IMG/VR virus record: IMGVR_UViG_3300023174_000184 | Span: 1 to 59,965 of that record | From: a virus | Taxonomy: Duplodnaviria > Caudoviricetes | Length of the DNA stretch: 59,965 nt | Reading direction: 5' to 3' (one strand) | In this document: positions 34,077-52,224 of the stretch, piece after piece | Numbering within the stretch: position 1 is the stretch's first letter | Layout of the letters: each line of letters opens with the position of its first letter | Made by a program: the position numbers and the translations under genes | The notes under the pieces: model-generated | The model's database searches: none | What the model was told of the DNA's origin: nothing | What the model saw: only the letters and a program-made list of their open reading frames with translations

Positions 34077-34712
34077 TTAAACCTCTTCCAGCGTTACCGA
34101 AATATTCCAAAGGTCAAAATTACTTCCACCACGTTTAACTACTCCATAGTTAAAGTCTGCAATGTAAACTTCCATAATTTGGTTGTATTGTTGAAGATGT
34201 CCAAATGCTGCTGGATCAGTTCCAAAATTATTATACTTATCATATGATAAAAACATCCAAAAAGATCCTTTATGCTTTTCATACCAATCCAATAACTGAA
34301 CTCCACCTGCACCACCGTCAGTTGTAAACTCTCCAGTTTGATTTTTATTTGGTGAGACTCCAGATTCATCAAAATTTGAAACGGTATAATATGATCTAGA
34401 TGGAAGCATATTCCAAGATACAGACATAGATAACTTATCTGCAATATGATATGACCTCATACGACCATTAATTGTTCTTTGGCGCTGCTCAATTCTTTGT
34501 GGATTAAATTGCATATCGCTACGATTATGGTCTGATAAAATCATAAATTGATTAAATAAAGATTCATCTGTTTCTGCTCCAGTATTTGCCCCTACCTCAT
34601 ACCCAGTAGGCACGTATAAGCCATCTACAAGCGTTCCAGGGTTTTCTGACCATAATACGCCTTGAGGTCTCTGATATCTTTTTCTACCCGTTAAATAGGC
34701 TGCTGTAGCCAT
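34077..34712 (-). CDS. Minor (distal) tail protein
   Basis: Directly follows tape measure; RTINGRMRSYHIADK...WNISVTLEEV. Confidence 0.65.
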   Translation of the reverse strand: MATAAYLTGRKRYQRPQGVLWSENPGTLVDGLYVPTGYEVGANTGAETDESLFNQFMILSDHNRSDMQFNPQRIEQRQRTINGRMRSYHIADKLSMSVSWNMLPSRSYYTVSNFDESGVSPNKNQTGEFTTDGGAGGVQLLDWYEKHKGSFWMFLSYDKYNNFGTDPAAFGHLQQYNQIMEVYIADFNYGVVKRGGSNFDLWNISVTLEEV

Positions 34713-37700
34713 TATGCCCTCTGTCCTTTAATTCTTTGGGAATCAATATATTGGATCTGAGTCATTACTGCCTTTGCAATATCATCAGGGTTTGAATTAG
34801 ATCCGCCAACTGTTATTCCTACATTATAATTATACACTGAAGAACTGTTATTGTTTACAGAACTTGAACTTGACATATTTGTTGGTGAAACAATGGTTGA
34901 TTGTACAGTTTGATATGTAGGAGAACTTAGGTTTGATGGACTCATCATAGATGGATACTGAGATGCATTCATCTGTGCAAGCATTGGACCAAATGCTTTT
35001 GCTCCAAATTTATTCATTACAAACTCACCAGGGGTTAACATTGTTGGAACGCTATCCCCTGCGCCTGTACCTCTAACAAATCCACCAGTTGACATTCCAG
35101 ATGCTTTTAAAATTCCTGCTAACGTAGTTGTATTTACTGTGCCAGATGCCGTTGTAGTTAGTGCTGGTGTTGCACTTGCTTTTGCAATACCTGTAAGAGT
35201 AGTTGTATTTACTGTACCAGTTGGAGTTGTTGTAGGTTTAGTTGTTGTAGTTGTGGGTGCGGTTACTGTTGTAACTGTATTAATTGTATTTGTAGTTAAA
35301 GTTATAGTTTTACTGCTTAAACTATTCCAAGCAGCAACTAGTTTAGAAACTAACCCTTCGCTATATTCCATGCTTTTGCCAAAGGCATCACTGCTAACTT
35401 TAGCCATATCAATTGCACTTTGTGCTTGAAGCCATCTATCTCTTTGTGCATCAATTGCATCAAGTTCTTTTGTTAATTCTTCTTGAAGTTTGTCAAGTGC
35501 TTTTTGTTTTGTATCAAGATTGCTTTGTGCTGTTTTTAATGCACCTTGTTCAATACCATAAATTTGATCTTGAAGATCACGAATTTCTCTTTCAGCAATA
35601 ACTTTTTGTGCATCAAGTGGTGCAATTTTTGTTTCTTGAATTGCAGCAATTTGGTCTTCAATAACTTTTCTTTGTTGTTCAAGAGCATAAGTTTGTTCAC
35701 CAATTTGATATTGACGTTCTTCAATTTGTGCTCTTGTTTGTCCCGCTGCATTTCTAAGATTTGCAATTTCTAAATCTCTTGCTGCTTGTAATGTTCCTTG
35801 TGATTTATTAAGTTGATTTGCAGCCTCTATTGCTCTCATATCTTGGGCTGCTGCTGCTGCAGCGGAAATATCTCCAGAAGTTAATGCATCTGCTAATGTT
35901 AATTGTTGTTTTTGCTGGGCTGCAATTTCTGAATTAATACTTGCAATTTCTGTAAGAGCCTTTGCCTGTGTATCATATCTATCATTAATTGCACCTGCTG
36001 CATGATCCATCAAACTTAAATCATGAGAAAGTTTATTGGATTCATCTGATAGTACTGCAATTGGCTTATCAAATTGAGCCTTAATTTGTTCTTGAAGTGA
36101 ATCAATTTGTGCTTGATACTCTTCAATTTTTCTAGTAATATTAATTTCAATATTACGTTGTTTTGTATCAATAGTTCCTTGAATTCCATTAATGCTTGCC
36201 TGTGCTTCTTCAACAGCCTTTTTAGCCTTATCAACTTCTACTTGAGCATCCTTCATTGGTTGCTTAAACTTAAGTTGAATTGCTGCCTCTAATGTATTAA
36301 AGTATTCTTGAGCATTACCCATAGCCTTATCAAATAATCCTTGCATTCCTTCAGGGGTTTTCATTGCAATATCAATTTCAATTTGCTTGCGTGTTGGAAT
36401 TGAATTAATGTAATCAACTAGATCTTGTGAAACTATTTTTCCATCTTTTAGATTGTTTAACATTTCTCTTGCAAAATCAGGATTACTTAAAACCGCTTGC
36501 ACCTGATCTGCATTAAATCCAAGTGCCTTCATATCATCAACAAGACCAGGAAGTTTCTTTAACATTTCAAGTTCTTGTACAGATGTTTGCATTGTTTGCT
36601 TAAATGCTAAATTAAGATTATCTACAGCATCCTTTGCAGTCTTTGCTGCATTTGCCATATCCTTTAATTTATTTGCTGGCTCAACACTTGAATTAATTGC
36701 AATTGCAAGTTCTGCATCTGCCACCATATTAAGTGCTGTTGCACTATCTACTCCTGCAGCCTTTAGTTTAATGAATGCTGCTTGTTGTGCTTTTACCTGT
36801 GTTATTGTATCTATTTGTGCTGTATTAAAATCACCAAGGGTTTGCTCATTAAATGCTTCTGCTAAATTTTTACCTGCTTCAGTTAAAATAACTTGACCAT
36901 TTTTAACTGTCATATAGGTCTTACGAGTTGCTTCATCCATTGATTCCATGAATGAAATAAATCCTCTGTTATTACCAGTTAAATCTTTACCTGACATCAA
37001 CTGATTAATAACTCCACTAAATTTTTCAATTCCTTTACCAGCAGTTATTCTGTTTAATTCATTTATTCCGCCTTGAGCATTGATAGCAGCATCTCTAACC
37101 ATCTTTAAACGATTAAGAATATTGTCTAATGTTGTGTCTCTATTACCTGCATTACTTGTATCTACAGGACCCTTTGGTGGTGTGCTTGGTGTTTTTCCAG
37201 GGGCAAATTGTTCTCTAGTTAATAAAGCAGAAAGAGCATCCTTGTTGCCATATTGTTTAATAAATGCTGCTGCTCCCTTTCCTCTAAGTCCACGTTTTTC
37301 TGCTTCTGCTTTTGCCATAGATGCAGCATTTTCATCTGTAATTGTTTTATATACAGATATGTAAGTTTGAGTTACAGTCTTTTGAATATCTGCTGGAAGA
37401 TTCTTATATCTTTCCCAGTCATCAATAAGTCCCTGCAAACTTGGCATTTCTGGATCTTTTTGCAAATCTATTAAAATCTTTTTATCAATTGTTTTTAATT
37501 TTTCAACTTTATTAAGCAATGGTACAAGTTTATCTATTTTGGCTAATCCATCACCCTTTAAAAATAGTGCAAGATTTATTTCTTTACCATCCATTTGTTG
37601 CAGTAATGTAAGAGCATTTAATCTATCATCAAACTTGCCTTCTTGTCCCTTTGCACCAATTTCAGTTAATAATTTAAGACCAATTTCTTTACCACCCTTG

Positions 37701-40700
37701 CCATTTATATTTGTAGCAAGATTAATAAGTTCTGCCATCTTGCCTGGGTCTTGAGTTGCAAAAGTTGTTGTAAGAAGAGTTTGAAGTTTTGCCTCCCCCT
37801 CCTTGCCAAACATATTAATAAGTTTTGTTGCAGTATTAGGAGCAAGATCTCCAGCACCAACCATAGTTTTAATTGCTATTTCAAGGTCTAGGCTTTTTGT
37901 TTTTTTTGCTGTATCTAAAAATACTGATGCAAGAGGGTCATTTTTATATTTATTTTTTATCTGTTGATTAAGAGATGCGAAATATGCTGCTTGATCTGGT
38001 CTATCAAATGTTCCTCTTTCTCTTCCTCTAATCCCTCCAAAAGCCTTAAGTTGATCATCAATTGCTTTTTTTCTTTGTGCAGCAATTTTAGAATCATCAG
38101 ACGCTTGCTTTGTTTTTAAATCTTTAATTTGTTGTTCTATTTCAACTTGTTTCTTTTTATCAGTTGTAGCAGCAAGTTGTGTTTGAAGTCCATGGATCTG
38201 GTCATCATATAGTTTTGCTTGTGCATCTCTTTGTGCTTGAATAAGTTCTAATGATTGAGTTCCAGATGCAGCAAGCGATGCAGCAAGTTCTTTTGATTGT
38301 TTTGTGGATGTATCAAATGGTGTATTTTGATAAGCCTTTTGAATATCTGCAAAAGTATTTGTTTGTTCTTTAATTATTTTAACTCTTACAAGCAGTGGAT
38401 TTGTTGCAAGGTCTTGTCCATCTGGACCAAGAACTTCTCTAAGTTGTCCCTTAATGTTTGCAGCAATTGTCATATCTGACATATTTATGCCAATTGATCT
38501 TGCTACTGAATTTGCATCTTCTGCAGTCATTAATCCATCTGATACATATGCGGAAAGTTCAAGTGCAACTTGTTTTACTGCATCACCACCGCCCTTTGCA
38601 ACATTTGTTTTAAATGTATTATAAATTCCCTTACCTACATCAGATGATAAAAAGTTAGTTCCAAACTGTTGACCAGCACGATCATATCCTGTTGTATATG
38701 TATTAGCAGTACCGCCTTCACGACGCTTTGCCATAATTTCAGATGCACCTACTTTTCCAGTAAGTTGTCCAACCTGTTTCATTTTTTCAGTTGTTGCAGA
38801 AATTTGATCAATGTAATTTGATTGTGCTTCAGCCATTGCTCTTGCTTTATCATCAAGATGCTTCCACATTAATGCAAGACCTGCAATTGCTGCAGCAGCA
38901 GCAATATATGGATTAGCCTCAATTGCTAATAATAATTTTCCAAACCCACCCTTAAGTGCTGGCATTAATTGTGAAACAACTTGAATGCCAATAGCAAACG
39001 GAACAAGTTTTCTTGCAACATCTCCAATTTGACCACCTAAAAATGATCCAAGAATTGTAAGTCCAGCAAAGGCTCCAGATGCACCGTTTATCTTTTCACT
39101 CATGGTCTTTGTTGTTTTAGTTGCTTCAGCAGTAGCCTTTGTGCTTTCTTCAATTGCCTGTGCTTGCTTTATTGTATTTTGACTTATTCTAGTTTGCTCT
39201 GCAGCATTTGAAAATGGAATATTTTTAACTCCACCAGTTACACCTAATGGATTACCATTTTCATCTATTCCAGTTGCTGCTCCTGGAACAATAAATGCTC
39301 TTTGTGGAATTCTTATAAGTCTAGAATCTTTTGTACTTCCAGTTGAACTTTTAACATTTGCTGGTTTTGGAACTGTATTGTCTAAAGTTGTTTTTGTTAT
39401 TTTACCAGTTGTTGGATCAACAACTGTCTCTCCAAGACCAACAGCAACTGTTTTATCTCCACGACGAGTTGACTGTGTATCCTTAATTGGATTTCTTTGA
39501 CCAGAGGAACCTCTTCCTAGTTCTACCTTTGTGCCATCTTTTGTAGTAATTGTGATTCCAGAATTTACTACTTTGCCCTTAGACTCACTAAGTCTTTCTC
39601 TAATTTCATAATCTTTAATTAAACCTTGAGCCTTAGCCTGATCAAGTACAGCCTTGGTTGTTGTTGGTGTATCTCCAAGACCTTTACCAATTGTATACTC
39701 TCCAACCTTATTATAAAGGTTTTTCATTTTTTGATATGTTGGTGTTTTTTGAATTTCTGCAGGTAATTCATTAAATGCTTTTTCAATTATGTCATCATTG
39801 ACTGTAGCAACCTTCATTGCTGAAACTTTTTGCAAAATTGCATCATCTACAATTTGTGCTTGTGATGCTGGAATATTAGAAGAAATCCATTTTCTTGCAC
39901 CACCCTTCATCCATTTTTGTTGCCATTCTTCTAGTGGTAATCCTCGTCCAGCCATACGACGATTATCTTCTCCAGCAAAAGAATAAGCCAAGTTATGTCT
40001 TGTGCTAATTTCTTCTGGTAAACCATTTGCTCTTAAAATATCTCTATAAACTGTAAGTTTTTGTTTGTCTAATTCGCTTATACCAACCTGGCTTAAAAGT
40101 TTATCAATACCAAGATACTTAGACTTTCCAACATGTGAATATTGTTCTCCAGCATTTGCTGTTCCGATTGAATATCTTTTTACTGATCCATCAATGAGTG
40201 CTTGAATAAATGGTTTATTTTGTGGGTTTTGTGCAACATCTGCTGGAATAACTGCTTCTCCAGGTGTAAGCATTGCTGGTACTGTATCTGTTCCACTCGC
40301 ATACCCTGGAACTTTTTTAGTTCCTGTAGCAAACTTCTTTGGTATTTTTCCACCCATCATTCCTGGGTTTGCTTTAGCAAATGCTGCAGCAGCAAGAGTT
40401 GCTTCAATATATGCAGTACGTAATGCTGCAACTGCTGATGTTTCTAGTTCAAATTGTTGTGTAAGTTTTGTATGTGCTTGGTTAAGAGATGCTGCTACTG
40501 TTTCTGCTTCAAGTTGTTGTTGTGTTAAATAACTAGTTGTTGCTCCAAGATTTTTTGAATCTCCAGTCATCTTTAAGAATCCAACACGAAGGGCTAAAAA
40601 TAATTTTACAATATTTGCAACTCCATTTGCAAGTAAGCCAAATGTCATTAGCAATACTGGTCCAACTACTCCAACAAGTGTAGTTGCTACAACAAGAAAT

Positions 40701-42325
40701 TTCTTTGTTCCATCACTAAGATTATTAAATTTATCAAAAAGATTTCCAACCACTTTAACTATTGGTGTAACTGCTTGTAAAAATGTTTTACCAATTGGTG
40801 CAATAGCAAGTTTTAATTTTTCAACAGATGCTCTAAAGTTTGTACCTACAGCATCTTCTACTGTTTTCATTTCTCGTTCAGATAAAATTGCAAGTTCTTC
40901 TACTGATTTTCCAGTTAAGTCAAGAACACGATTTGCCTGACTTCCATCTTTAGTAATATTTTGAAATAATGTTGAAAGACGAGCAAACTGGAATTTGCCA
41001 AACATTTGTTCAATTGCTCTGGCACGATTAAGTGGATCTAGTTGATTTAATGCAGTTGCAAAATCAATAACTGTTTTCTTAAGGTTGCCCTTATCTCCTT
41101 CGACAATTGCTTTAACATTAATACCAAATCCTGCAAGCATATCTGATGCTTTTTTAGTTGGATTGATTAATGCTGCAAGACCAGATTTGATAGCATTTGC
41201 ACCTTCTGATGCATTAATTCCACCTTCCTTCATTGCTGTTAAGAAGAATGCTAAATCTTGTACATTGCCACCAAGTTGTTGGATTACTGGTCCTGCTTTA
41301 GGAACGGCAACAGTCAAATCTTCAATAGATGTTACAGTTTGGTTTTCAACTGCGTTAAGAAAGTCAATGTTTTTCTTTAAATCTTGTGCAGAAATACCAA
41401 ATGCATTTGTTAAAGAAATAGTTGTTTCTAATGCTTGCTGTTGATCTACACCACCAAGAACTGCAAGCCTTGTTGCTTGTGCAACTTGAGCAGTAAGGTC
41501 TGCACCCATTTTACCTGTTGCTGCTGCATCAGCAGCCATTTTCATTGTATCTGCAACTGCTACACCGTATCTAGTAAATTCTTTAGCAAGGTTTTGAATA
41601 TCTCCAAGAGCCTTATTAGTTTGTTCAGTTGTTGTAAACATATCTCCATAAACACGTTTAAATCTAACAGCCTGTGCTTCAAGATCCATAAATGTTTTTG
41701 CTGCCATTGAGCCAAAGTATGCTAATGGAACAGAGAAACCAACCATCAACTGACGACCAGCCCATTGAGTATTCTTACCAAAGTTTAAAAGATTCGTTGA
41801 ACCTTGTCTAATTAATTGATTAAATATTGCTTGTTTTTGTGATGCTAATGCTGTTTGTGTTGCTGCATCTTTCATATTTAATGAAAGTGGTGTAACAGCC
41901 ATTGCCTTGGTTGCACCATTGGCATCACGACCCATTTTAATATACTGGGTTTGCATCTTCTTGACACGTTCTTCTGCTACTTTGCCAATTGTGTCAAATT
42001 CACTCTTAAATAATTTTCCAAATGTCTTTGTTGCTCCTCCAGCATATCTGAAGTATTGATTCATTGAAAGTTTATTATTTTCAAGAGCATGGGTAAATGA
42101 CTCAGTGGATGTTCTTACAAGACCCATCTGAGCCTGGAATTTACCAGTTGCGTTGATTGCATTTAAAAGGTTAGTTTGTAAACCTTTTTGGGCAGCAGCA
42201 GATGCTGCACTACCTTTTGCTACTTGAGAATGAAAGTTGGCGAGTTGGCGTTGTAAATTCTTTAGTTCCGCTAATGCAGGGGCAGCATTTATATTTATGC
42301 CAATATTAGCATTAACATCGCTCAC
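34712..42325 (-). CDS. Tape measure protein
   Basis: About 2537 aa, Ala/Lys/Gln-rich helical; TP901-like core (DFLNAVENQT...MKEGGINASEGANAIKSGL), TM-like segments, DTVPAMLTPGEAVI motif; start GTG 42325 or TTG 42328. Confidence 0.93.
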   Translation of the reverse strand: MSDVNANIGININAAPALAELKNLQRQLANFHSQVAKGSAASAAAQKGLQTNLLNAINATGKFQAQMGLVRTSTESFTHALENNKLSMNQYFRYAGGATKTFGKLFKSEFDTIGKVAEERVKKMQTQYIKMGRDANGATKAMAVTPLSLNMKDAATQTALASQKQAIFNQLIRQGSTNLLNFGKNTQWAGRQLMVGFSVPLAYFGSMAAKTFMDLEAQAVRFKRVYGDMFTTTEQTNKALGDIQNLAKEFTRYGVAVADTMKMAADAAATGKMGADLTAQVAQATRLAVLGGVDQQQALETTISLTNAFGISAQDLKKNIDFLNAVENQTVTSIEDLTVAVPKAGPVIQQLGGNVQDLAFFLTAMKEGGINASEGANAIKSGLAALINPTKKASDMLAGFGINVKAIVEGDKGNLKKTVIDFATALNQLDPLNRARAIEQMFGKFQFARLSTLFQNITKDGSQANRVLDLTGKSVEELAILSEREMKTVEDAVGTNFRASVEKLKLAIAPIGKTFLQAVTPIVKVVGNLFDKFNNLSDGTKKFLVVATTLVGVVGPVLLMTFGLLANGVANIVKLFLALRVGFLKMTGDSKNLGATTSYLTQQQLEAETVAASLNQAHTKLTQQFELETSAVAALRTAYIEATLAAAAFAKANPGMMGGKIPKKFATGTKKVPGYASGTDTVPAMLTPGEAVIPADVAQNPQNKPFIQALIDGSVKRYSIGTANAGEQYSHVGKSKYLGIDKLLSQVGISELDKQKLTVYRDILRANGLPEEISTRHNLAYSFAGEDNRRMAGRGLPLEEWQQKWMKGGARKWISSNIPASQAQIVDDAILQKVSAMKVATVNDDIIEKAFNELPAEIQKTPTYQKMKNLYNKVGEYTIGKGLGDTPTTTKAVLDQAKAQGLIKDYEIRERLSESKGKVVNSGITITTKDGTKVELGRGSSGQRNPIKDTQSTRRGDKTVAVGLGETVVDPTTGKITKTTLDNTVPKPANVKSSTGSTKDSRLIRIPQRAFIVPGAATGIDENGNPLGVTGGVKNIPFSNAAEQTRISQNTIKQAQAIEESTKATAEATKTTKTMSEKINGASGAFAGLTILGSFLGGQIGDVARKLVPFAIGIQVVSQLMPALKGGFGKLLLAIEANPYIAAAAAIAGLALMWKHLDDKARAMAEAQSNYIDQISATTEKMKQVGQLTGKVGASEIMAKRREGGTANTYTTGYDRAGQQFGTNFLSSDVGKGIYNTFKTNVAKGGGDAVKQVALELSAYVSDGLMTAEDANSVARSIGINMSDMTIAANIKGQLREVLGPDGQDLATNPLLVRVKIIKEQTNTFADIQKAYQNTPFDTSTKQSKELAASLAASGTQSLELIQAQRDAQAKLYDDQIHGLQTQLAATTDKKKQVEIEQQIKDLKTKQASDDSKIAAQRKKAIDDQLKAFGGIRGRERGTFDRPDQAAYFASLNQQIKNKYKNDPLASVFLDTAKKTKSLDLEIAIKTMVGAGDLAPNTATKLINMFGKEGEAKLQTLLTTTFATQDPGKMAELINLATNINGKGGKEIGLKLLTEIGAKGQEGKFDDRLNALTLLQQMDGKEINLALFLKGDGLAKIDKLVPLLNKVEKLKTIDKKILIDLQKDPEMPSLQGLIDDWERYKNLPADIQKTVTQTYISVYKTITDENAASMAKAEAEKRGLRGKGAAAFIKQYGNKDALSALLTREQFAPGKTPSTPPKGPVDTSNAGNRDTTLDNILNRLKMVRDAAINAQGGINELNRITAGKGIEKFSGVINQLMSGKDLTGNNRGFISFMESMDEATRKTYMTVKNGQVILTEAGKNLAEAFNEQTLGDFNTAQIDTITQVKAQQAAFIKLKAAGVDSATALNMVADAELAIAINSSVEPANKLKDMANAAKTAKDAVDNLNLAFKQTMQTSVQELEMLKKLPGLVDDMKALGFNADQVQAVLSNPDFAREMLNNLKDGKIVSQDLVDYINSIPTRKQIEIDIAMKTPEGMQGLFDKAMGNAQEYFNTLEAAIQLKFKQPMKDAQVEVDKAKKAVEEAQASINGIQGTIDTKQRNIEINITRKIEEYQAQIDSLQEQIKAQFDKPIAVLSDESNKLSHDLSLMDHAAGAINDRYDTQAKALTEIASINSEIAAQQKQQLTLADALTSGDISAAAAAAQDMRAIEAANQLNKSQGTLQAARDLEIANLRNAAGQTRAQIEERQYQIGEQTYALEQQRKVIEDQIAAIQETKIAPLDAQKVIAEREIRDLQDQIYGIEQGALKTAQSNLDTKQKALDKLQEELTKELDAIDAQRDRWLQAQSAIDMAKVSSDAFGKSMEYSEGLVSKLVAAWNSLSSKTITLTTNTINTVTTVTAPTTTTTKPTTTPTGTVNTTTLTGIAKASATPALTTTASGTVNTTTLAGILKASGMSTGGFVRGTGAGDSVPTMLTPGEFVMNKFGAKAFGPMLAQMNASQYPSMMSPSNLSSPTYQTVQSTIVSPTNMSSSSSVNNNSSSVYNYNVGITVGGSNSNPDDIAKAVMTQIQYIDSQRIKGQRA

Positions 42326-42345
42326 CAACTACACCTTCTTCCTAT

Positions 42346-45881: not shown

Positions 45882-46852
45882 TAGATTGCCCTTGGCTTAT
45901 AAACTGAAACAATATATTTTTGTAGAATCTTATCCACAAAGCCATTGCCAGTTCCAGCAAATAATGAAGTATCAAATTTAATATTAAATTGATCTGTTTG
46001 ATATCCAACAACATATTTTTTTGCATAGTCAAGGTTTCCACATTTAATATCTTCAACTAAACGACGAACTGCATCTTGAACATCATGCGGAATAACTTTG
46101 TATCCTGCCTCATAAATAAAAATATAATCTGTGCCTTCAGGAAACATAACTGGTTGATCATAAAGCACGGTATGAGAACTGTCAATAGGAATAGATGCAC
46201 GATATGAATCTGAAAATGCTCTTGGTAACTGTCTTGGACGTTTTTCAGCACGATTAAAATTATTTATTCTTGGAACTGGTTCTTTATAAATTGCAGAACG
46301 GTCCTGTGTAATACCGTATGTAAAACCACCAATTTCTGGAGTATCAGCATCAACATCATATACCAATTCACCATTTTCATAAACCTTAATAATTTTATAC
46401 CCTATATCCCAAAGAGGCATATAGTCTGTTCCTTCTCCAACAACTTCCATAACTGTTTTTTCAAAAATAAAACCTTTTGGTCCAACCATTGAATCAACAA
46501 GACCTCTGGCAAGTTGTTCATATTCTTTGTATTCTGCAATCTCTGTTGCTGTTGTTCCTAAAGTATTTGGATCAACATATGGCTTCATAATATTAAGAAC
46601 ATCTTCAACTACAACATCTCCATATATTGTTCCATCTGGAGTATCATAAATTAATACTGCATAGTTATGATCATATTTAACAAAATCTCCAGTAAGTTCA
46701 TATACAACTTTTGCATCTGCATTAGATGTTAAGACAACTTGAGCCTCAATTGTTTTTGGAGCATTTTCAATTGTAAAAATATATTGCTCATTGGCATCTG
46801 GTACGGAGTATGTAACTGATAAAGGATATGGTGGGAGTCTTAAAATTTGCAT
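45881..46852 (-). CDS. Head-tail adaptor protein
   Basis: YEAGYKVIPHDVQDAV...GTGNGFVDKILQKY pattern; position. Confidence 0.65.
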   Translation of the reverse strand: MQILRLPPYPLSVTYSVPDANEQYIFTIENAPKTIEAQVVLTSNADAKVVYELTGDFVKYDHNYAVLIYDTPDGTIYGDVVVEDVLNIMKPYVDPNTLGTTATEIAEYKEYEQLARGLVDSMVGPKGFIFEKTVMEVVGEGTDYMPLWDIGYKIIKVYENGELVYDVDADTPEIGGFTYGITQDRSAIYKEPVPRINNFNRAEKRPRQLPRAFSDSYRASIPIDSSHTVLYDQPVMFPEGTDYIFIYEAGYKVIPHDVQDAVRRLVEDIKCGNLDYAKKYVVGYQTDQFNIKFDTSLFAGTGNGFVDKILQKYIVSVYKPRAI

Positions 46853-47292
46853 TATTTGGTACCGTAGTGTCTTGCTACCTCATCAGGAGTTGCTATACGA
46901 ACTGCCTTATGAGTTATCCACTTTTCGGATGCCTCCTTAGATACTATATTGTACCCCAATTCTAATACCCCAACTCCAGTCCAAGATAAATTTCTTGTAG
47001 AGTGTACAGCAACATCATTTTTATTCTTTTTTATTTTTTTTGTTTCAATAACTTGAACTGGTTCTTGTTTTTTAGATATTGCATTAATTACATTTTCAGG
47101 ATTTTTAATTTCTTCTTCAGACTTTGCTTGTTCTTGAACTTTTTTAGCAAGACCACTTTCATTTGAATATTTTTCTAATATAGCAATAATCTGTGCTTTT
47201 TTTACATTACTTTCTAAACTTATTCCATTGTCTTCACAATAAGAACGAAGTTCTAAAACTGTCTTTTTGTTTAAAACATCATAAAGTGACAT
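46852..47292 (-). CDS. Hypothetical protein with N-terminal HeH/Rho-N/SAP-like domain
   Basis: LNKKTVLELRSYCEDNGI...KKAQIIAIL; C-terminal GYNIVSK...HKAVRIATPDEV. Confidence 0.6.
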   Translation of the reverse strand: MSLYDVLNKKTVLELRSYCEDNGISLESNVKKAQIIAILEKYSNESGLAKKVQEQAKSEEEIKNPENVINAISKKQEPVQVIETKKIKKNKNDVAVHSTRNLSWTGVGVLELGYNIVSKEASEKWITHKAVRIATPDEVARHYGTK

Positions 47293-47336
47293 ATTAATTC
47301 CTCCTAGTTCATTATACCAGAGTAAAGGAATTACAC

Positions 47337-47672
47337 TTACTTAAGGTATGTCTTAATTTCGTCTTTGTTTGCTAAACGAACAGCCTTATGATTTGCAATT
47401 TTTTCATAACGATTTTTGCTAACAAAACTATATCCTTTTGGAATTGTAGATCCGCCTGGAAGTGTCAAACTACGTAGTGTATAAATTGCAATATCTTCTG
47501 CTGAATTATCTTCAAACTTAGATACTGACTCTTCAACCTTTGGTGCTTCTACAACTGGTGCTTCTACAACAGGTGCTTCAACCTTTGGCTCTTCTAATAC
47601 TGGTGCTTCTACAATTGCCTCAACTACTGGAGTCTCAACAACTGGTGCATTTTCATTTTTATTTTCAAACAT
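47337..47672 (-). CDS. Hypothetical protein with (EAPVV)n repeats, paralogue of 46852..47292
   Basis: EAPVV/EAPKV repeats; C-terminal GYSFVSK...HKAVRLANKDEI. Confidence 0.6.
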   Translation of the reverse strand: MFENKNENAPVVETPVVEAIVEAPVLEEPKVEAPVVEAPVVEAPKVEESVSKFEDNSAEDIAIYTLRSLTLPGGSTIPKGYSFVSKNRYEKIANHKAVRLANKDEIKTYLK

Positions 47673-47700
47673 AATTCCTCCTTGTTAAATTATATCATAA

Positions 47701-47934
47701 TTACTTTTTACGACTAGATCTAAACCTACCTTGTGTTGCAAGCCTAATTCCACTTGGATCTCCAGATGGATTAACTGCGTTTGCTCCAGACGTTTCCCCT
47801 AAAATTGCCACACCATTTTGTCCAAGATACTGCTGTGTCATAGGTCCTGATGGACCCATTACTATTGCACCTACTACAACAAATGCTCCCTCTCCATTTA
47901 ATGGATTATTTGCATCTGTACCTGGATATGACAT
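47701..47934 (-). CDS. 77-aa protein homologous to the major capsid protein N-terminal arm
   Basis: YPG..LNGEGAF..GETSGANAVNPSGDPSGIRLATQGR versus MCP YPG..LNGQGSF..GVTSGPNAVHPTGTPGGILLPEQAR; AGGAG RBS. Confidence 0.7.
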   Translation of the reverse strand: MSYPGTDANNPLNGEGAFVVVGAIVMGPSGPMTQQYLGQNGVAILGETSGANAVNPSGDPSGIRLATQGRFRSSRKK

Positions 47935-47943
47935 AAAACTCCT

Positions 47944-47988
47944 AAAACTAAATTAAGGGGAGGGAGGATATTTCACCGCCCTCCCCCT
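47944..47988 (-). terminator. GC-rich hairpin/terminator after major capsid gene
   Basis: GGGGAGGG...CCCTCCCC stem with imperfect U-tract TTAATTTAGTTTT. Confidence 0.7.
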
Positions 47989-48007
47989 ATTTGGTTATAG
48001 ACTTATA

Positions 48008-49141
48008 TTATTCATCTGCTGCAGCGTCTGCGAAAGCAACTGCATCAAGTTCTTCCCACTGAATACCAAAACGAACGAATACTGTGTATTCGATTGTGTC
48101 CTTCTTTGGACGGTATTCACGGTTTACAGTGATATCACGCTGGAATCCCCAGATACGGTTCTGTGGGAATGTCAAATCGACATATCCTGCAGGGTAGTAA
48201 GGAACTTCCTGAACATCAATTCCTAGAACACGAGTTGTACGTGCTCCACCGAATGTCTGTCCTGTACCATCAAGGTATGCCTGACGGTTCTGCGCTGTAC
48301 CAGCAGGAACTGAAGAAAATGCTTCAGCAATTGCATCTGCAAGTGTTCCATTGTACTTTACAATACCCTGGAATGCATCTGTACCAGCATAAAACTTAAG
48401 ATTATTCTTAAGTGCACGGTACTTACGTGGCATTGCAAGGATAATATCCTGCATTACATTTGTGTTCCATGCGTTATCTGTTACTGTAACTATTGATTCG
48501 TGTGCTCCTGAACCATCAGCCTTAGCCTTTTTGATAAAACCATTCATGATTGAAAGGAAGTCACCTGTTGAACCATCGCCATTAATAGCAAGGTCTTCAA
48601 TATCGTTTGCAAATGCGTTAGTCATCAAGCGAACTAGATGATCTTCCAACGCACCTCCTTCAATATTATCTTCAAGTGCTTCTGTTGCTACTTCCCAGTC
48701 AAGACGAATCTTCTTGGTAGTAAGTTCAACCTTAGTAAAAGTTGCACCGACGTTTGTGTAGTTGTATGATGCTTGAGCAGCAGCACGAATTACACGCTCA
48801 CCGACGTTAACCTTATCAAGTTCCATTGTGTTTGCACGCATTGTAACTCTACGTCCATCTTGAGCGAGGACAGTTGCATCCCACACGTAATCAATGAAGC
48901 GACGAGCCTGTTCAGGCAATAGAATACCACCAGGGGTTCCTGTTGGATGTACTGCGTTTGGTCCAGATGTAACTCCTGTGATTGGTGTTGGGATATTTCC
49001 CATTGCACCACCACGAGTAGGAACTGCTCCGCTACCTGAAGTATCTCCTGATGCGAAAGAACCCTGACCGTTTAGTTCAGCGCCTGAGCCACCAGAACCT
49101 GGATAGTTCTTTACGATTTCTGTATTTGTTGTTTCCGACAT
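48008..49141 (-). CDS. Major capsid protein (HK97 fold)
   Basis: GGILLPEQARRFIDY, ELTTKKIRLDWEVATEALEDNIEG, FANDIEDLAINGD; AGGAGGTG RBS before MSETT. Confidence 0.92.
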   Translation of the reverse strand: MSETTNTEIVKNYPGSGGSGAELNGQGSFASGDTSGSGAVPTRGGAMGNIPTPITGVTSGPNAVHPTGTPGGILLPEQARRFIDYVWDATVLAQDGRRVTMRANTMELDKVNVGERVIRAAAQASYNYTNVGATFTKVELTTKKIRLDWEVATEALEDNIEGGALEDHLVRLMTNAFANDIEDLAINGDGSTGDFLSIMNGFIKKAKADGSGAHESIVTVTDNAWNTNVMQDIILAMPRKYRALKNNLKFYAGTDAFQGIVKYNGTLADAIAEAFSSVPAGTAQNRQAYLDGTGQTFGGARTTRVLGIDVQEVPYYPAGYVDLTFPQNRIWGFQRDITVNREYRPKKDTIEYTVFVRFGIQWEELDAVAFADAAADE

Positions 49142-49163
49142 ATTGTTCACCTCCTAGTGATTA

Positions 49164-50513
49164 TTATCGTTTGAATAGGTCGGTTGATTTGAGGAAACTA
49201 CCGCCCCATAGGGATTTATGAGTAGACATTTCTGCCAACTCCTGCACGATCTCGCCAAGATCGCCAGACTTGCGGAAAGCAGTGTCAGCCTCAACTTTAT
49301 CTACTCGCTTTCCAAACTCATTAAAGTTACCTTGAACATTTGCAACTTCATTTGCTACAGTTTCAACTTTATTGTTGACTGTTGCTAAATTTCCATTTAC
49401 ATCTGCAAGAGACTTTGATAGTTGAGCAACCTGATCGCTAATTGATTTTACGGTTGCTGTTAGGTCGCCAAAGGCATTAGTTAGAGAATCCTTAATGTCT
49501 GCAACAGCAGTGGCAACTGCTTCATCGTCAGACTTTTCTACTGTATGGATTTCTGGTTTAGCATCTGCATCTGAAGGATTATTTGGTGTTTCACCAATAA
49601 TATCTTGGCTATCTACAGCCTCATTGATATCCTTCTTTTCTACTTCTGCTTCTGTCTCTGGAGCAACCTCAACATTTGTAATTTCTTCTGTTGGTGCTTC
49701 TGGTGTAACTTCTTCAGTTACAACATCTTCAACAACTGTTGTTGTTTCATCTGTCATTGGATTTGCCTCCTTTGTCATCTTAATTGTTCTAATGCCTTTT
49801 GCACTATCAACTAAGAACTTTATTGTTTCTATATTTTCATCATCGTTTTCTACGAAACCAATATTTTTCATTGTCTTGCTACATGTAGGGCAGTCTTCTT
49901 GTGACTCTGGAGACACTCTTACGATGTCATCTGAATTACACCAGTAAACATTGTCAACTACTGCTTTTGATAAATATCCACCCATAACATTTTCCCCATT
50001 AACTTTTTCAATTGAAATAACATTAGCAAATTGGTTTGCTGGACTATCTACAAGAGATAACTCAAATAATTCATATTCTTTAATAACACGAATAGCCTTA
50101 TCAATTTCTACATTAAATTCATCATCAGACTTTGTAATATTTCCACCAATTGAAAAACCAGTTAGTGTTCCATCAAGAACCTTTTCCCAAGTATCTTGTG
50201 CACCCTTTGAAACATATGCTGAAACAAAAACTCCATTATAAAATTTCTTTGTTGATGGATCAAAATACTTATCCTCTTTAAAAGATACTACTTTGCCTAC
50301 TGCTGTTGGTTGATGCATTTCACGCAAATTACCACGAAACTTTTTAAAAGCCTCAAGGCTTGCCTGTGTATCTACAATGTCGCCCTGCTTATCAATATTA
50401 TCTAGTGTTGCAAATCCTGATACAAGGCGACGTTCTTGATCTACCTTGCCAATTGGCATAGAAAATCTTAGATTGTTGCCTTCAGTTGTCCAGTGTGCTT
50501 TATTGATACTCAT
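49164..50513 (-). CDS. Prohead (capsid maturation) protease fused to scaffold
   Basis: VSGFATLDNIDKQGD, LREMHQ, WEKVLDGTLTGFSIGG, ELSLVDSPAN; acidic coiled-coil C-terminal half. Confidence 0.9.
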   Translation of the reverse strand: MSINKAHWTTEGNNLRFSMPIGKVDQERRLVSGFATLDNIDKQGDIVDTQASLEAFKKFRGNLREMHQPTAVGKVVSFKEDKYFDPSTKKFYNGVFVSAYVSKGAQDTWEKVLDGTLTGFSIGGNITKSDDEFNVEIDKAIRVIKEYELFELSLVDSPANQFANVISIEKVNGENVMGGYLSKAVVDNVYWCNSDDIVRVSPESQEDCPTCSKTMKNIGFVENDDENIETIKFLVDSAKGIRTIKMTKEANPMTDETTTVVEDVVTEEVTPEAPTEEITNVEVAPETEAEVEKKDINEAVDSQDIIGETPNNPSDADAKPEIHTVEKSDDEAVATAVADIKDSLTNAFGDLTATVKSISDQVAQLSKSLADVNGNLATVNNKVETVANEVANVQGNFNEFGKRVDKVEADTAFRKSGDLGEIVQELAEMSTHKSLWGGSFLKSTDLFKR

Positions 50514-50553
50514 ATCAACTCTATTATATCAAATGTTTTCAAGGTTTTCTCAA

Positions 50554-52224
50554 TTATTGAGATGATCTACCTTGACCCTTTGCATTTCTTCCAGAGACTG
50601 TTGCTGCCCCGTCAGATTGGTTATTTGCTCTTTCACCATCACGAGTCCTAGTCTTTTTATTATTAGCATTTGCATCTGCTGCTGCCCTGGCAGTTAACTG
50701 AAGAGGTTGATCTCCATGTTGTGCCTGTGGAAGATTAAGAAGTTCACGAGCCTCATTTGGAAGCATAATTTGGTTCTTAACATATCTTTCAAGAATTTGA
50801 GATTGTGCAATTTCATCTGTAAGTGTAAGTTCATTAAACTTAAATTCAAGTACATCTGTTTTTTCTTTAATAACCTTATTGATAGTTTTTTCTAGATTTC
50901 TTTGTTCTGGACGAGAAACTTGTTCTTTGAATGTTCTATCTTGTGATAAAGCACCAGCAAGTGAGCCTGAGTCAGAACCACCAATTTTTGAGATAGGCAT
51001 CTGATGAGCAATAAAAATATCGTCACGATTTTGCTTGCGATACTCTTTAAATGATCCTTCTTGAATACCATTCTCAATAGCCTTCATTTCAAACTCAACC
51101 TTATTATGGTCTTGGTCTCCAGGAAGTGGTAAATATAGTGTTCTATGAGATTGAGCCTTTAGCCCTGTTTGTAAGAATCGGAACATCTTATCTTCTGCAT
51201 CTGGTGATAGTTTTGCACCCTTCAACATAATAATATATCTTGGTACCGCTTTATTTTCAAAATAATCGATATTGTACTGTGATGCCAACTGATCACCAAT
51301 TAGTGATGGTAGGGCAGCCACAATATCTGGAACTCCATAATATGTATTAAGTGGTGAATATTCTTTAATATGGATAATCTCATTTGGACGAGGGTCAGCA
51401 GTCAGTGGATTTAGATTTGTTGCTCCAAAATTACGGAAGTAAACTAACTTCTGACCAATAATTTGAACAAACCCATCCTTTAATCTACGAACACGAAGGG
51501 TTGTAGATGGAATGTGACCAACGTAACCAATATCTCCATTTACTGTTCGACCAATTTCAAGGTAGCCATTTCCCGTTGCTTGAACATCCGTGTAAACTTT
51601 TTCCATTGTTTTTGTAAAACTATCATCATCATTTAATGATTCAAGCCAATCACGCATTTGAAGTTTCATTCTTTCAATTCGCTTACGAGCACGATCTACA
51701 GCCTCTGCATCATCATTCATTTCCATACGTAACATTGTGCTGTCATTTACATTAAAGTCATATCCTAGACCAACAACATTTTCCACCTTTGCATCAATAG
51801 CAGCATGGTTAGCAAAAGATGTATCGTAAAAATTTGCTAATTCATAAAGATTGTATGGTGGAGTTATAACGTCAAAAATTCCATAACCATTTCTATAAAC
51901 AGTTCCAGGATTTAATTGTTTTGACTCTGCTCCATCTTGTCCCGTTGGACTTGCTTTTGCACCAGTAAGATATTCATCCATTGTGGCTGCATCATATGGA
52001 CGCATTGCATTTTTTGTATCAACATTTGAAAAAGAGGTATAGTCCCCACCATATGCTTTTTCTGTTCTTGTTGTTTTTCTTTTAAAGTTAACATCTAAAT
52101 TATTAAGAGATTTTAATTCATCCCATGAACGAATAAATGGATCTTGTCTTTTAAATATATTTTCTTCTTTTTCCTGAGTATTTAAACTTGCAGGAACAAC
52201 ATATTCATATTCTTCATCAGCCAT
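50554..52224 (-). CDS. Portal protein
   Basis: ITPPYNL, TGNGYLEI, NEIIHIK, YYGVPDI, YFENKAVP, LPNEARELL; start reassigned to MADEE. Confidence 0.92.
   Translation of the reverse strand: MADEEYEYVVPASLNTQEKEENIFKRQDPFIRSWDELKSLNNLDVNFKRKTTRTEKAYGGDYTSFSNVDTKNAMRPYDAATMDEYLTGAKASPTGQDGAESKQLNPGTVYRNGYGIFDVITPPYNLYELANFYDTSFANHAAIDAKVENVVGLGYDFNVNDSTMLRMEMNDDAEAVDRARKRIERMKLQMRDWLESLNDDDSFTKTMEKVYTDVQATGNGYLEIGRTVNGDIGYVGHIPSTTLRVRRLKDGFVQIIGQKLVYFRNFGATNLNPLTADPRPNEIIHIKEYSPLNTYYGVPDIVAALPSLIGDQLASQYNIDYFENKAVPRYIIMLKGAKLSPDAEDKMFRFLQTGLKAQSHRTLYLPLPGDQDHNKVEFEMKAIENGIQEGSFKEYRKQNRDDIFIAHQMPISKIGGSDSGSLAGALSQDRTFKEQVSRPEQRNLEKTINKVIKEKTDVLEFKFNELTLTDEIAQSQILERYVKNQIMLPNEARELLNLPQAQHGDQPLQLTARAAADANANNKKTRTRDGERANNQSDGAATVSGRNAKGQGRSSQ

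Follow-up and report, generated by a model that had tools for sequence, protein, structure and literature searches.

The locus described here raises a simple question: what is the role of a small gene, placed directly behind the major capsid protein (MCP) gene of a tailed virus, whose predicted product appears to repeat part of the beginning of the capsid protein? The window, by which we mean the whole stretch of 59,965 nucleotides that was analysed, is a viral record estimated to be 56% complete, and its complete relatives are 106-114 kb long. A 2538-aa ORF in the tail region (34712..42328, minus strand) probably encodes a very long tape-measure protein and, together with the genome length of the complete relatives, points to a large siphovirus-type virion.

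The small ORF encodes 77 amino acids on the minus strand (47701..47934), with an ATG at 47934, a stop codon at 47701-47703 and a C-terminal tail that reads RFRSSRKK. The predicted protein has a pI of 9.5 and a net charge of +6 over its last 15 residues, and its centre is Gly-rich and hydrophobic. A strong AGGAG ribosome-binding site (RBS; 47939..47943, minus strand) can be read directly in the sequence 4 nt 5' of the ATG. The MCP gene (48008..49150, minus strand) lies upstream on the same strand, with a spacing of 73 nt between the two. It is of the HK97 type, matching phrog_1623 (E = 3e-75) in a profile match that begins at residue 72, and its product is 43-45% identical to the annotated major capsid proteins of Streptomyces phages. 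The ORF finder placed the start of the MCP at a GTG at 49150 (VNNMSE…), and an alternative ATG at 49141 (MSE…) gives a protein of 377 aa. The ATG is likely the true start, since MSE is conserved in all relatives and some of them start directly at MSE. Directly upstream of the MCP gene, again on the same strand, is a gene (49164..50513, minus strand) for a prohead protease (Peptidase_S78; phrog_9427, E = 3e-123; proheadase_HK97) fused to an acidic linker and a coiled-coil, scaffold-like C-terminal part. This protease-scaffold fusion is a candidate partner of the MCP extension described below.

On the 3' side of the small ORF, two paralogous small genes (47337..47672 and 46852..47292, both minus strand) are followed by genes matching head-tail adaptor and tail types. 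The two paralogous proteins have a common C-terminal domain of ~45 residues (…GYNIVxKExxxKWxTHKAVRxATPxEV…) and different N-termini, one an acidic PE/VE-rich repeat and the other HeH/Rho_N-like (SAP-like), with a Pfam E-value of 1e-4 for the HeH match, below the cut-off. Nearly all related loci whose downstream sequence is long enough have one or two genes of this type behind the MCP gene or the small ORF, and the products of these genes are possibly head-associated DNA-binding proteins.

An earlier note on this DNA had claimed that the small ORF matches the N-terminal part of the MCP in order, over its first ~85 residues, and had proposed alignment statistics as a check. The statistics bear the collinear match out. 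BLASTP pairs residues 44-70 of the small protein with residues 57-83 of the MCP (16 identities in 27 positions, E = 9e-7), and a gapped Smith-Waterman alignment runs collinearly from residues 2-70 of the small protein along residues 15-83 of the MCP with a score of 101, against 36.5 +/- 6.2 for shuffled sequences, none of 2000 of which scored as high. The AGGAG site and the RFRSSRKK tail named in the same note are likewise both there. The extent of the match needs a small correction: MCP residues 15-83, counted from the GTG start, are copied, but the conserved 14-residue leader before them is not. The small ORF begins at S-YPG; its MCP counterpart reads K-N-YPG and follows a leader of the form MSE..K(N/S), and this leader is conserved even in Streptomyces phage Beuffert. 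The duplicated part of the MCP gene (48902..49108, minus strand) thus comprises a Gly-rich extension and the start of the N-arm (…TGTPGGILLPEQAR), or 69 of the 380 residues of the MCP.

The same relationship is found well beyond the window. Among 80 related viral loci, which are the best 80 of at least 599 matches, the small protein matches the 5' end of the MCP gene in all 80 (tblastn, E 8e-12 to 6e-3). A profile built from 24 small proteins also finds the MCP N-terminus in each of five records that lack the small gene, with E-values from 3e-23 to 3e-10. The joint alignment of the two families is collinear throughout, going from YPG through (HxH or LN)-G-x-G-(A/S)-(F/I), GP/xG, LG(N) and FG to (GPNAVNP)-SGTPSGI(R/K)xPxQ. 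On these alignments we take the small ORF to be a paralogue of the N-terminal region of the MCP, and its origin is best explained by a duplication that took in only part of the MCP gene, at its 5' end.

It is worth asking what this copied segment is in the capsid protein itself. In Streptomyces phage Beuffert, 29 residues stand before the RFIDY motif (RFIDYMWD), versus 84 in the MCP of the window. Of 225 matching records of cultured phages, the 25 that were listed have alignments that begin only at MCP residue 71-73, and the RFIDYVWD region is where both phrog_1623 and the cultured relatives begin to align. The short N-termini of the cultured relatives indicate that ~55 Gly-rich residues are inserted between the leader and the start of the N-arm (GGILLPEQARRF), and by this comparison the ~55-aa Gly-rich extension is peculiar to an uncultured freshwater clade. 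Only the last ~12 residues of the copied part (SGxPSGIRLxxQ, against TGTPGGILLPEQ) align to a segment that is also present in Beuffert (GGGGLLNAEQ). The name given earlier to the copied segment, an HK97 N-arm, thus seems not to suit most of its length, which appears to correspond to the clade-specific extension. Read in this way, the small ORF comprises the ~55-aa extension and the first ~12 residues of the N-arm, without the leader or the capsid body. None of the parts of the HK97-fold body (P-domain, A-domain, E-loop and spine helix) is found in it, as it ends at about MCP residue 83, before RFIDYVWD.

No match to the small protein was found among 50,697 phage records at E <= 1, it is missing from every cultured phage searched, and no family of Pfam, PHROGs, NCBIfam or PADLOC matches it, decoration and cement families included. 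In a large protein collection the family has at least 162 clusters (90% identity) at E <= 0.001. In the 120 clusters listed, the proteins have 69-85 aa, and such names as are given read 'hypothetical' or, in three clusters, 'filamentous hemagglutinin family protein'. We take the latter name to be a motif artefact, and no functional name was accepted for the clusters listed.

Is the small ORF a gene, or what is left of a duplication? The earlier note had called it diverged but intact, had suggested a dN/dS analysis, and had held that absence or decay of the ORF in relatives would speak for a recombination remnant. An intact homologue, 70-85 aa long and 65-78 nt after the MCP stop codon, is present in 25 of the 80 related loci. 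It is absent from 52, and the other three have too little downstream sequence to judge, although one of them, L028, shows the start of a copy. In every locus that carries it, the small gene stands directly after the MCP gene and before the head-completion genes. All 25 copies are intact, with no frameshifted or truncated copy among them. Even where the copies have diverged to ~33% identity, they still have the start codon, the RBS, MSY at the N-terminus and a tail that is basic though variable in sequence; M1, S2 and Y3 are invariant across 138 sequences of the family. Close pairs of small genes have pN/pS values of 0.06-0.31. Pooling six independent close pairs on separate branches gives a pN/pS of 0.16 (36 nonsynonymous versus 70 synonymous changes over 1020 and 324 sites; binomial p = 8e-20). 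The pooled pN is 0.30 for the small gene, 0.22 for the MCP extension and 0.08 for the MCP body. These figures uphold the earlier description of the ORF as intact and identify it, as far as substitution patterns can, as a real protein-coding gene under selection and no remnant. Of the two signs of a remnant, absence is thus common and decay is seen in none of the 25 copies.

The absences are informative in their own right. In two records rated 100% complete, the sole match to the small-family profile is the MCP itself, so that the small gene is absent from these genomes and has not been relocated. When presence and absence are placed on a tree of MCP bodies, at least nine changes are needed, four of them forced by well-supported branches. 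The clearest case involves four closely related loci, of which L063 and L071 carry the small gene and L048 and L052 do not. The MCP bodies of L048 and L052 lie within ~0.005 changes per column of that of L071, and their N-terminal MCP regions are identical as printed. As such close kin do without the gene, no essential site can depend on it. The alignment of the two pairs shows a clean gap that extends from just 3' of a hairpin behind the MCP gene to just 5' of the conserved TCTGGTATAAT. DNA identity between L071 and L048 changes exactly at the small-gene joint, from 96.4% (upstream sequence and MCP gene) to 87.0% (downstream); for L020 and L009 it is 90% up to the end of the MCP gene and 69% beyond. 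These drops mark the 3' end of the MCP gene, with its hairpin, as a mosaic recombination boundary between the capsid module and the head-completion module. The distribution thus characterizes the small gene, at the level of genome comparison, as dispensable and accessory.

The identity between the small protein and the MCP extension is higher within a genome than across clades in six of six clade pairs (mean D = 0.08), and among four clades the own clade is the best match in all four rows and in three of the four columns. MCPs of the HxH type pair with small proteins of the HxH type, and the clade of the window has L-N-G-x-G in both. The signal is modest and comes from four clades. Only about half of the identical residues have identical codons (8 of 17 in L004 and 10 of 16 in L030), which argues against recent gene conversion as its cause; an older gene conversion, or selection for a shared partner, is possible.

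Alongside this resemblance there are systematic differences. The small proteins have a mean pI of 8.8 and a mean net charge of +1.3, compared to 4.8 and -2.7 for the MCP extension, and their last 15 residues have a net charge of +2 to +6. Their most hydrophobic central 15-aa window is also more hydrophobic than that of the extension (Kyte-Doolittle means of 1.44 and 0.72), and the GILLPEQ of the MCP becomes GI(R/K)(L/R/K)PxQ in most of them. Two further sequence features deserve mention. Most members of the family, and their capsid proteins, have HxH after YPG (alignment columns ~11-13), and a subgroup (L015, L054, L063, L071 and L075, for example) has two cysteines (GxGC…LGC; columns ~18/44) that are absent from the MCP extension. 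The HxH motif and the cysteine pair are hints of a metal site or a disulfide. The small protein of the window has neither of them.

Structure prediction adds little to this picture. AlphaFold2, with a 138-row alignment, gave the small protein a mean pLDDT of 51.2 and only a weak hairpin at residues 25-32. Such low values would fit an arm that becomes ordered upon binding and would equally fit a protein with no defined structure. The prediction for the MCP (mean pLDDT 42.4) was unusable, its 56-row alignment consisting of rows that are all 76-89% identical to the query, and the prediction of a complex between the full-length MCP and the small protein returned 'no answer' with a score of 0.00, which counts neither way for binding. 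A search of the PDB by sequence with the MCP gave no match at E <= 1. AlphaFold is described as predicting N-arms badly in a study of actinophage capsids (Podgorski et al. preprint 10.1101/2022.09.09.507160). In the ESM Atlas, fragments of periplasmic-binding proteins came up (0.93; 143 of 256 shared features) and were rejected as lying in the range of chance hits.

Wider searches were made with a profile of the small-protein family against 1.84 billion representatives, and gave 23 matches at E <= 0.001. We examined 15 of these, that is, all except P0014, P0016, P0040, P0122, P0128, P0130, P0133 and P0138. Short fragments, either of small-protein family members or of MCP N-termini, account for seven of the 15. 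Two others, P0134 and P0137, are propeller-like repeat proteins with a blade motif, 'YGNGTFVAVG..GTILTSPDG', that is reminiscent of the small proteins at residues ~14-36; the small-protein segment G-x-G-(A/C)-I-A-x-G-G-x-x-G-x-I-I-x-G/N-P-x-G-x-I-T is similar to single blades of BNR/Ycf48-like beta-propellers. The sole weak hairpin of the AlphaFold2 model falls in this blade-like segment. The individual stretches are weak, and the likeness may at most serve as a lead for a beta-hairpin; we do not take it for homology. The other six matches are long repeat or low-complexity proteins (P0123, for instance, has 1937 aa and 20 'ISGTP' Ig-like stretches), which score because many weak stretches add up; we regard them as motif-level matches and not as relatives. 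No fused, longer form of the small protein was found at E <= 0.001 among 7998 candidates, which is weak evidence.

How might the small gene be expressed? Behind the MCP stop codon is a G+C-rich hairpin (47946..47996, minus strand; core stem 47957-47988) with a folding energy of -24.9 kcal/mol over 51 nt, and the surrounding 91-nt stretch (47925-48015) folds at -31.3 kcal/mol, with z = -4.4 against shuffled sequences. In 81 of 81 loci there is such a hairpin behind the MCP stop codon, with folding energies of -19 to -29 kcal/mol; its sequence varies and its structure is kept. Of the 8 nt after the hairpin of the window three are U, and the mean number of U in these 8 nt is 2.8 where the small gene is present versus 3.7 where it is absent. 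A simple terminator scan of the window did not call the hairpin at 47957-47988, and the only Rfam match in 47300-48200 was to a miRNA, on the hairpin and at chance level (E = 0.79). It is likely that the hairpin either acts as a leaky terminator or stabilises the 3' end of the MCP message. With a strong stem and three U in eight nt after the 51-nt stretch, the 'imperfect terminator' of the earlier note is a fair wording for it. In most loci with the small gene, the RBS (AGGAG or AAGGAG) begins 2-10 nt after the stem. Since this leaves no room for a promoter, the small ORF must be read through from the MCP transcript, as the same note had supposed.

An extended -10-like promoter element (TGATATAAT; 47689..47697, minus strand) stands between the stop codon of the small ORF and the next gene. 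Its form in the relatives is the TCTGGTATAAT mentioned above, which is invariant in the four aligned loci (L048, L052, L063 and L071). In loci without the small gene, the position right after the hairpin is often taken by the TGGTATAAT element of the next gene. As the -10-like element comes after its stop codon, the small ORF is flanked by the MCP hairpin on one side and by the next promoter on the other. The element lies only ~17 nt 5' of the start codon of the next gene, a distance that implies a very short leader for that gene.

Contigs from freshwater metatranscriptomes (runs X1, X2, X4 and X5; three samples from three studies) cover the MCP gene, and those of one run also cover the downstream 111-aa gene. 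No contig falls on 47689-47942. Because rare sequence is lost from contigs, and neither the ends nor the levels of transcripts can be read from them, these data say nothing on the expression of the small ORF. The summed depth of the MCP-gene contigs reaches thousands in one run (region 46800-50600). Many of the MCP-matching RNA contigs, being only 90-95% alike, derive from relatives. The capsid sequence of this clade is abundant in freshwater RNA libraries, where carry-over of DNA is possible.

Taken together, the sequence features suggest that the small protein is probably an accessory head-assembly or head-associated protein. It would be a flexible copy, 70-85 aa long, of the MCP extension, in which the capsid body is replaced by a short Arg/Lys-rich tail. 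It would be translated from MCP transcripts that read through past the hairpin and, if the hairpin terminates some of these transcripts, it would be made at a lower level than the MCP. In HK97-fold capsid proteins, N-arms and N-terminal extensions serve to bind the scaffold and to make contacts between capsomers. We tentatively propose, as a reading that may quite possibly hold, that the small protein acts by molecular mimicry at the site of the MCP extension, entering or acting on the procapsid with its tail toward the DNA or the acidic linker of the scaffold. Under this proposal the small protein would occupy the extension site in the procapsid or capsid, its binding partner being the neighbouring MCP subunits or the protease-scaffold. 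It would sit on the inner face of the shell, where the basic tail could contact DNA or the acidic linker, and it would modulate or reinforce head assembly without being required for it. The HK97 protease cuts after a lysine, and if the leader of the MCP is removed at maturation, the small protein would imitate the mature end of the MCP.

It is also possible, if on the unlikely side, that the free 'arm' co-assembles with the MCP extensions, where it would either fill missing contacts (at the portal vertex or the pentons) or use arm mimicry to bring its Arg-rich tail to the DNA. If this is true, the HxH and LNG variants shared by the small proteins and their MCPs would reflect direct contact or a shared site.

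The homology and the own-genome resemblance on which mimicry in the head is proposed would be equally at home with a protein that acts outside the head. The small protein could be a soluble decoy or timer that competes with the MCP extension for the prohead protease or scaffold and so delays cleavage or scaffold engagement. The gene of the protease-scaffold fusion lies directly upstream of the MCP gene, the small protein starts exactly at the YPG that follows the MCP leader and could thus imitate a processed or protease-facing end, and dispensability suits a modulator. Yet no cleavage site or protease-binding motif of this MCP is known, and it is hard to see what a pure decoy would need the conserved basic tail for; we consider this explanation unlikely.

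There is a further alternative, in which the likeness to the MCP reflects the origin of the gene and nothing more, and the protein has a role unrelated to its own head: against competing related phages, for example, or directed at a host factor or a host sensor of capsids. The patchy presence of the gene on the capsid tree, its evolution at a faster rate than the extension and the capsid body, and the coincidence of its presence or absence with the mosaic joint at the 3' end of the MCP gene (where L071 and L048 go from 96% to 87% identity) are typical of accessory or conflict genes. The resemblance to the own extension, however, is the opposite of what would be predicted for an anti-phage weapon; the protein matched nothing in PADLOC, Pfam, PHROGs or NCBIfam, and the small gene always stands directly behind the MCP gene. 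Such a role seems to us decidedly doubtful.

That the gene is a non-functional remnant, left by tandem duplication or by recombination, or else a silent cassette donating sequence for conversion of the MCP 5' end, is very improbable: the gene is indeed absent from two thirds of the relatives, and the weak signal of concerted evolution could come from occasional conversion, but selection on the protein is strong and none of the start codon, RBS, MSY and basic tail that the 25 unbroken copies keep would be needed in a silent cassette. A template/variable repeat of the DGR type, or a silent conversion cassette, had also been considered as a candidate and was rejected because the copy is of the 5' end, the DNA identity is low and the ORF is selected as a protein. 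The remaining probability belongs to explanations that were not considered.

The mimicry that we propose can be set beside several well-known phage systems. In T4, gp24 is the vertex protein, a full-length HK97-fold paralogue of gp23 that forms the pentons. The small protein is like gp24 in being a second head protein that would come from duplication of the MCP gene and is encoded beside it. Unlike gp24, it duplicates the N-terminal extension only (69 of 380 residues), has no fold body and is dispensable. The internal proteins IPI-IPIII of T4 offer another comparison. They are small, basic and non-essential, differ from one related phage to another, have their genes among the head genes, and have been proposed to enter the prohead by means of an N-terminal targeting part. 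This targeting sequence has ~10 residues, is similar to the other internal proteins and not to the capsid protein, and is cleaved by the prohead protease. The small protein shares with them its basic character (mean pI 8.8, with a tail of +2 to +6), its dispensability and its place in the head module. It differs in being wholly a copy of the MCP extension, with a 'cargo' that would be only a basic tail of ~10-15 residues.

Two further comparisons come from proteins that act on a head without being made from its MCP. CpmB of the pathogenicity island SaPI1 mimics the scaffolding protein of phage 80alpha (PMC5644958). Both would be small proteins that imitate the interacting end of a head-assembly protein and compete for its site, which for the small ORF is a proposal. 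They differ in that CpmB, a satellite's protein, imitates the scaffold and changes the size of the capsid, whereas the small ORF would imitate the MCP and is the phage's own gene. Another group is that of the decoration or cement proteins, such as gpD of lambda and Soc of T4 (PMC7602432; 10.1101/2022.09.09.507160). Those known have folds of their own and attach to the outside of the shell at 2- or 3-fold positions. They resemble the small protein in being dispensable or conditionally dispensable small head-associated proteins encoded by head-module genes, but none is known to be a copy of an MCP arm, and the small protein has no family match and no predicted independent fold. Full-text searches of the literature brought up no description of an arm-only capsid paralogue. 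A free copy of the MCP's own N-terminal extension is thus unlike gp24, the internal proteins, CpmB and the decoration proteins, none of which is such a copy.

What would such a gene mean for these viruses? The natural pairs of loci with the small gene (L071 and L063) and without it (L048 and L052), with 96% DNA identity through the MCP gene, make the effect of the small gene on the assembly, stability and size of the capsid directly testable, given a host or an expression system. The small-protein family, with its many clusters, is abundant in freshwater viral data and has gone without annotation. A free-standing copy of the extension that is natural and selected would be a ready-made probe of the binding partner of that extension, and it would exemplify the birth of a new head protein from a fragment of a capsid gene.
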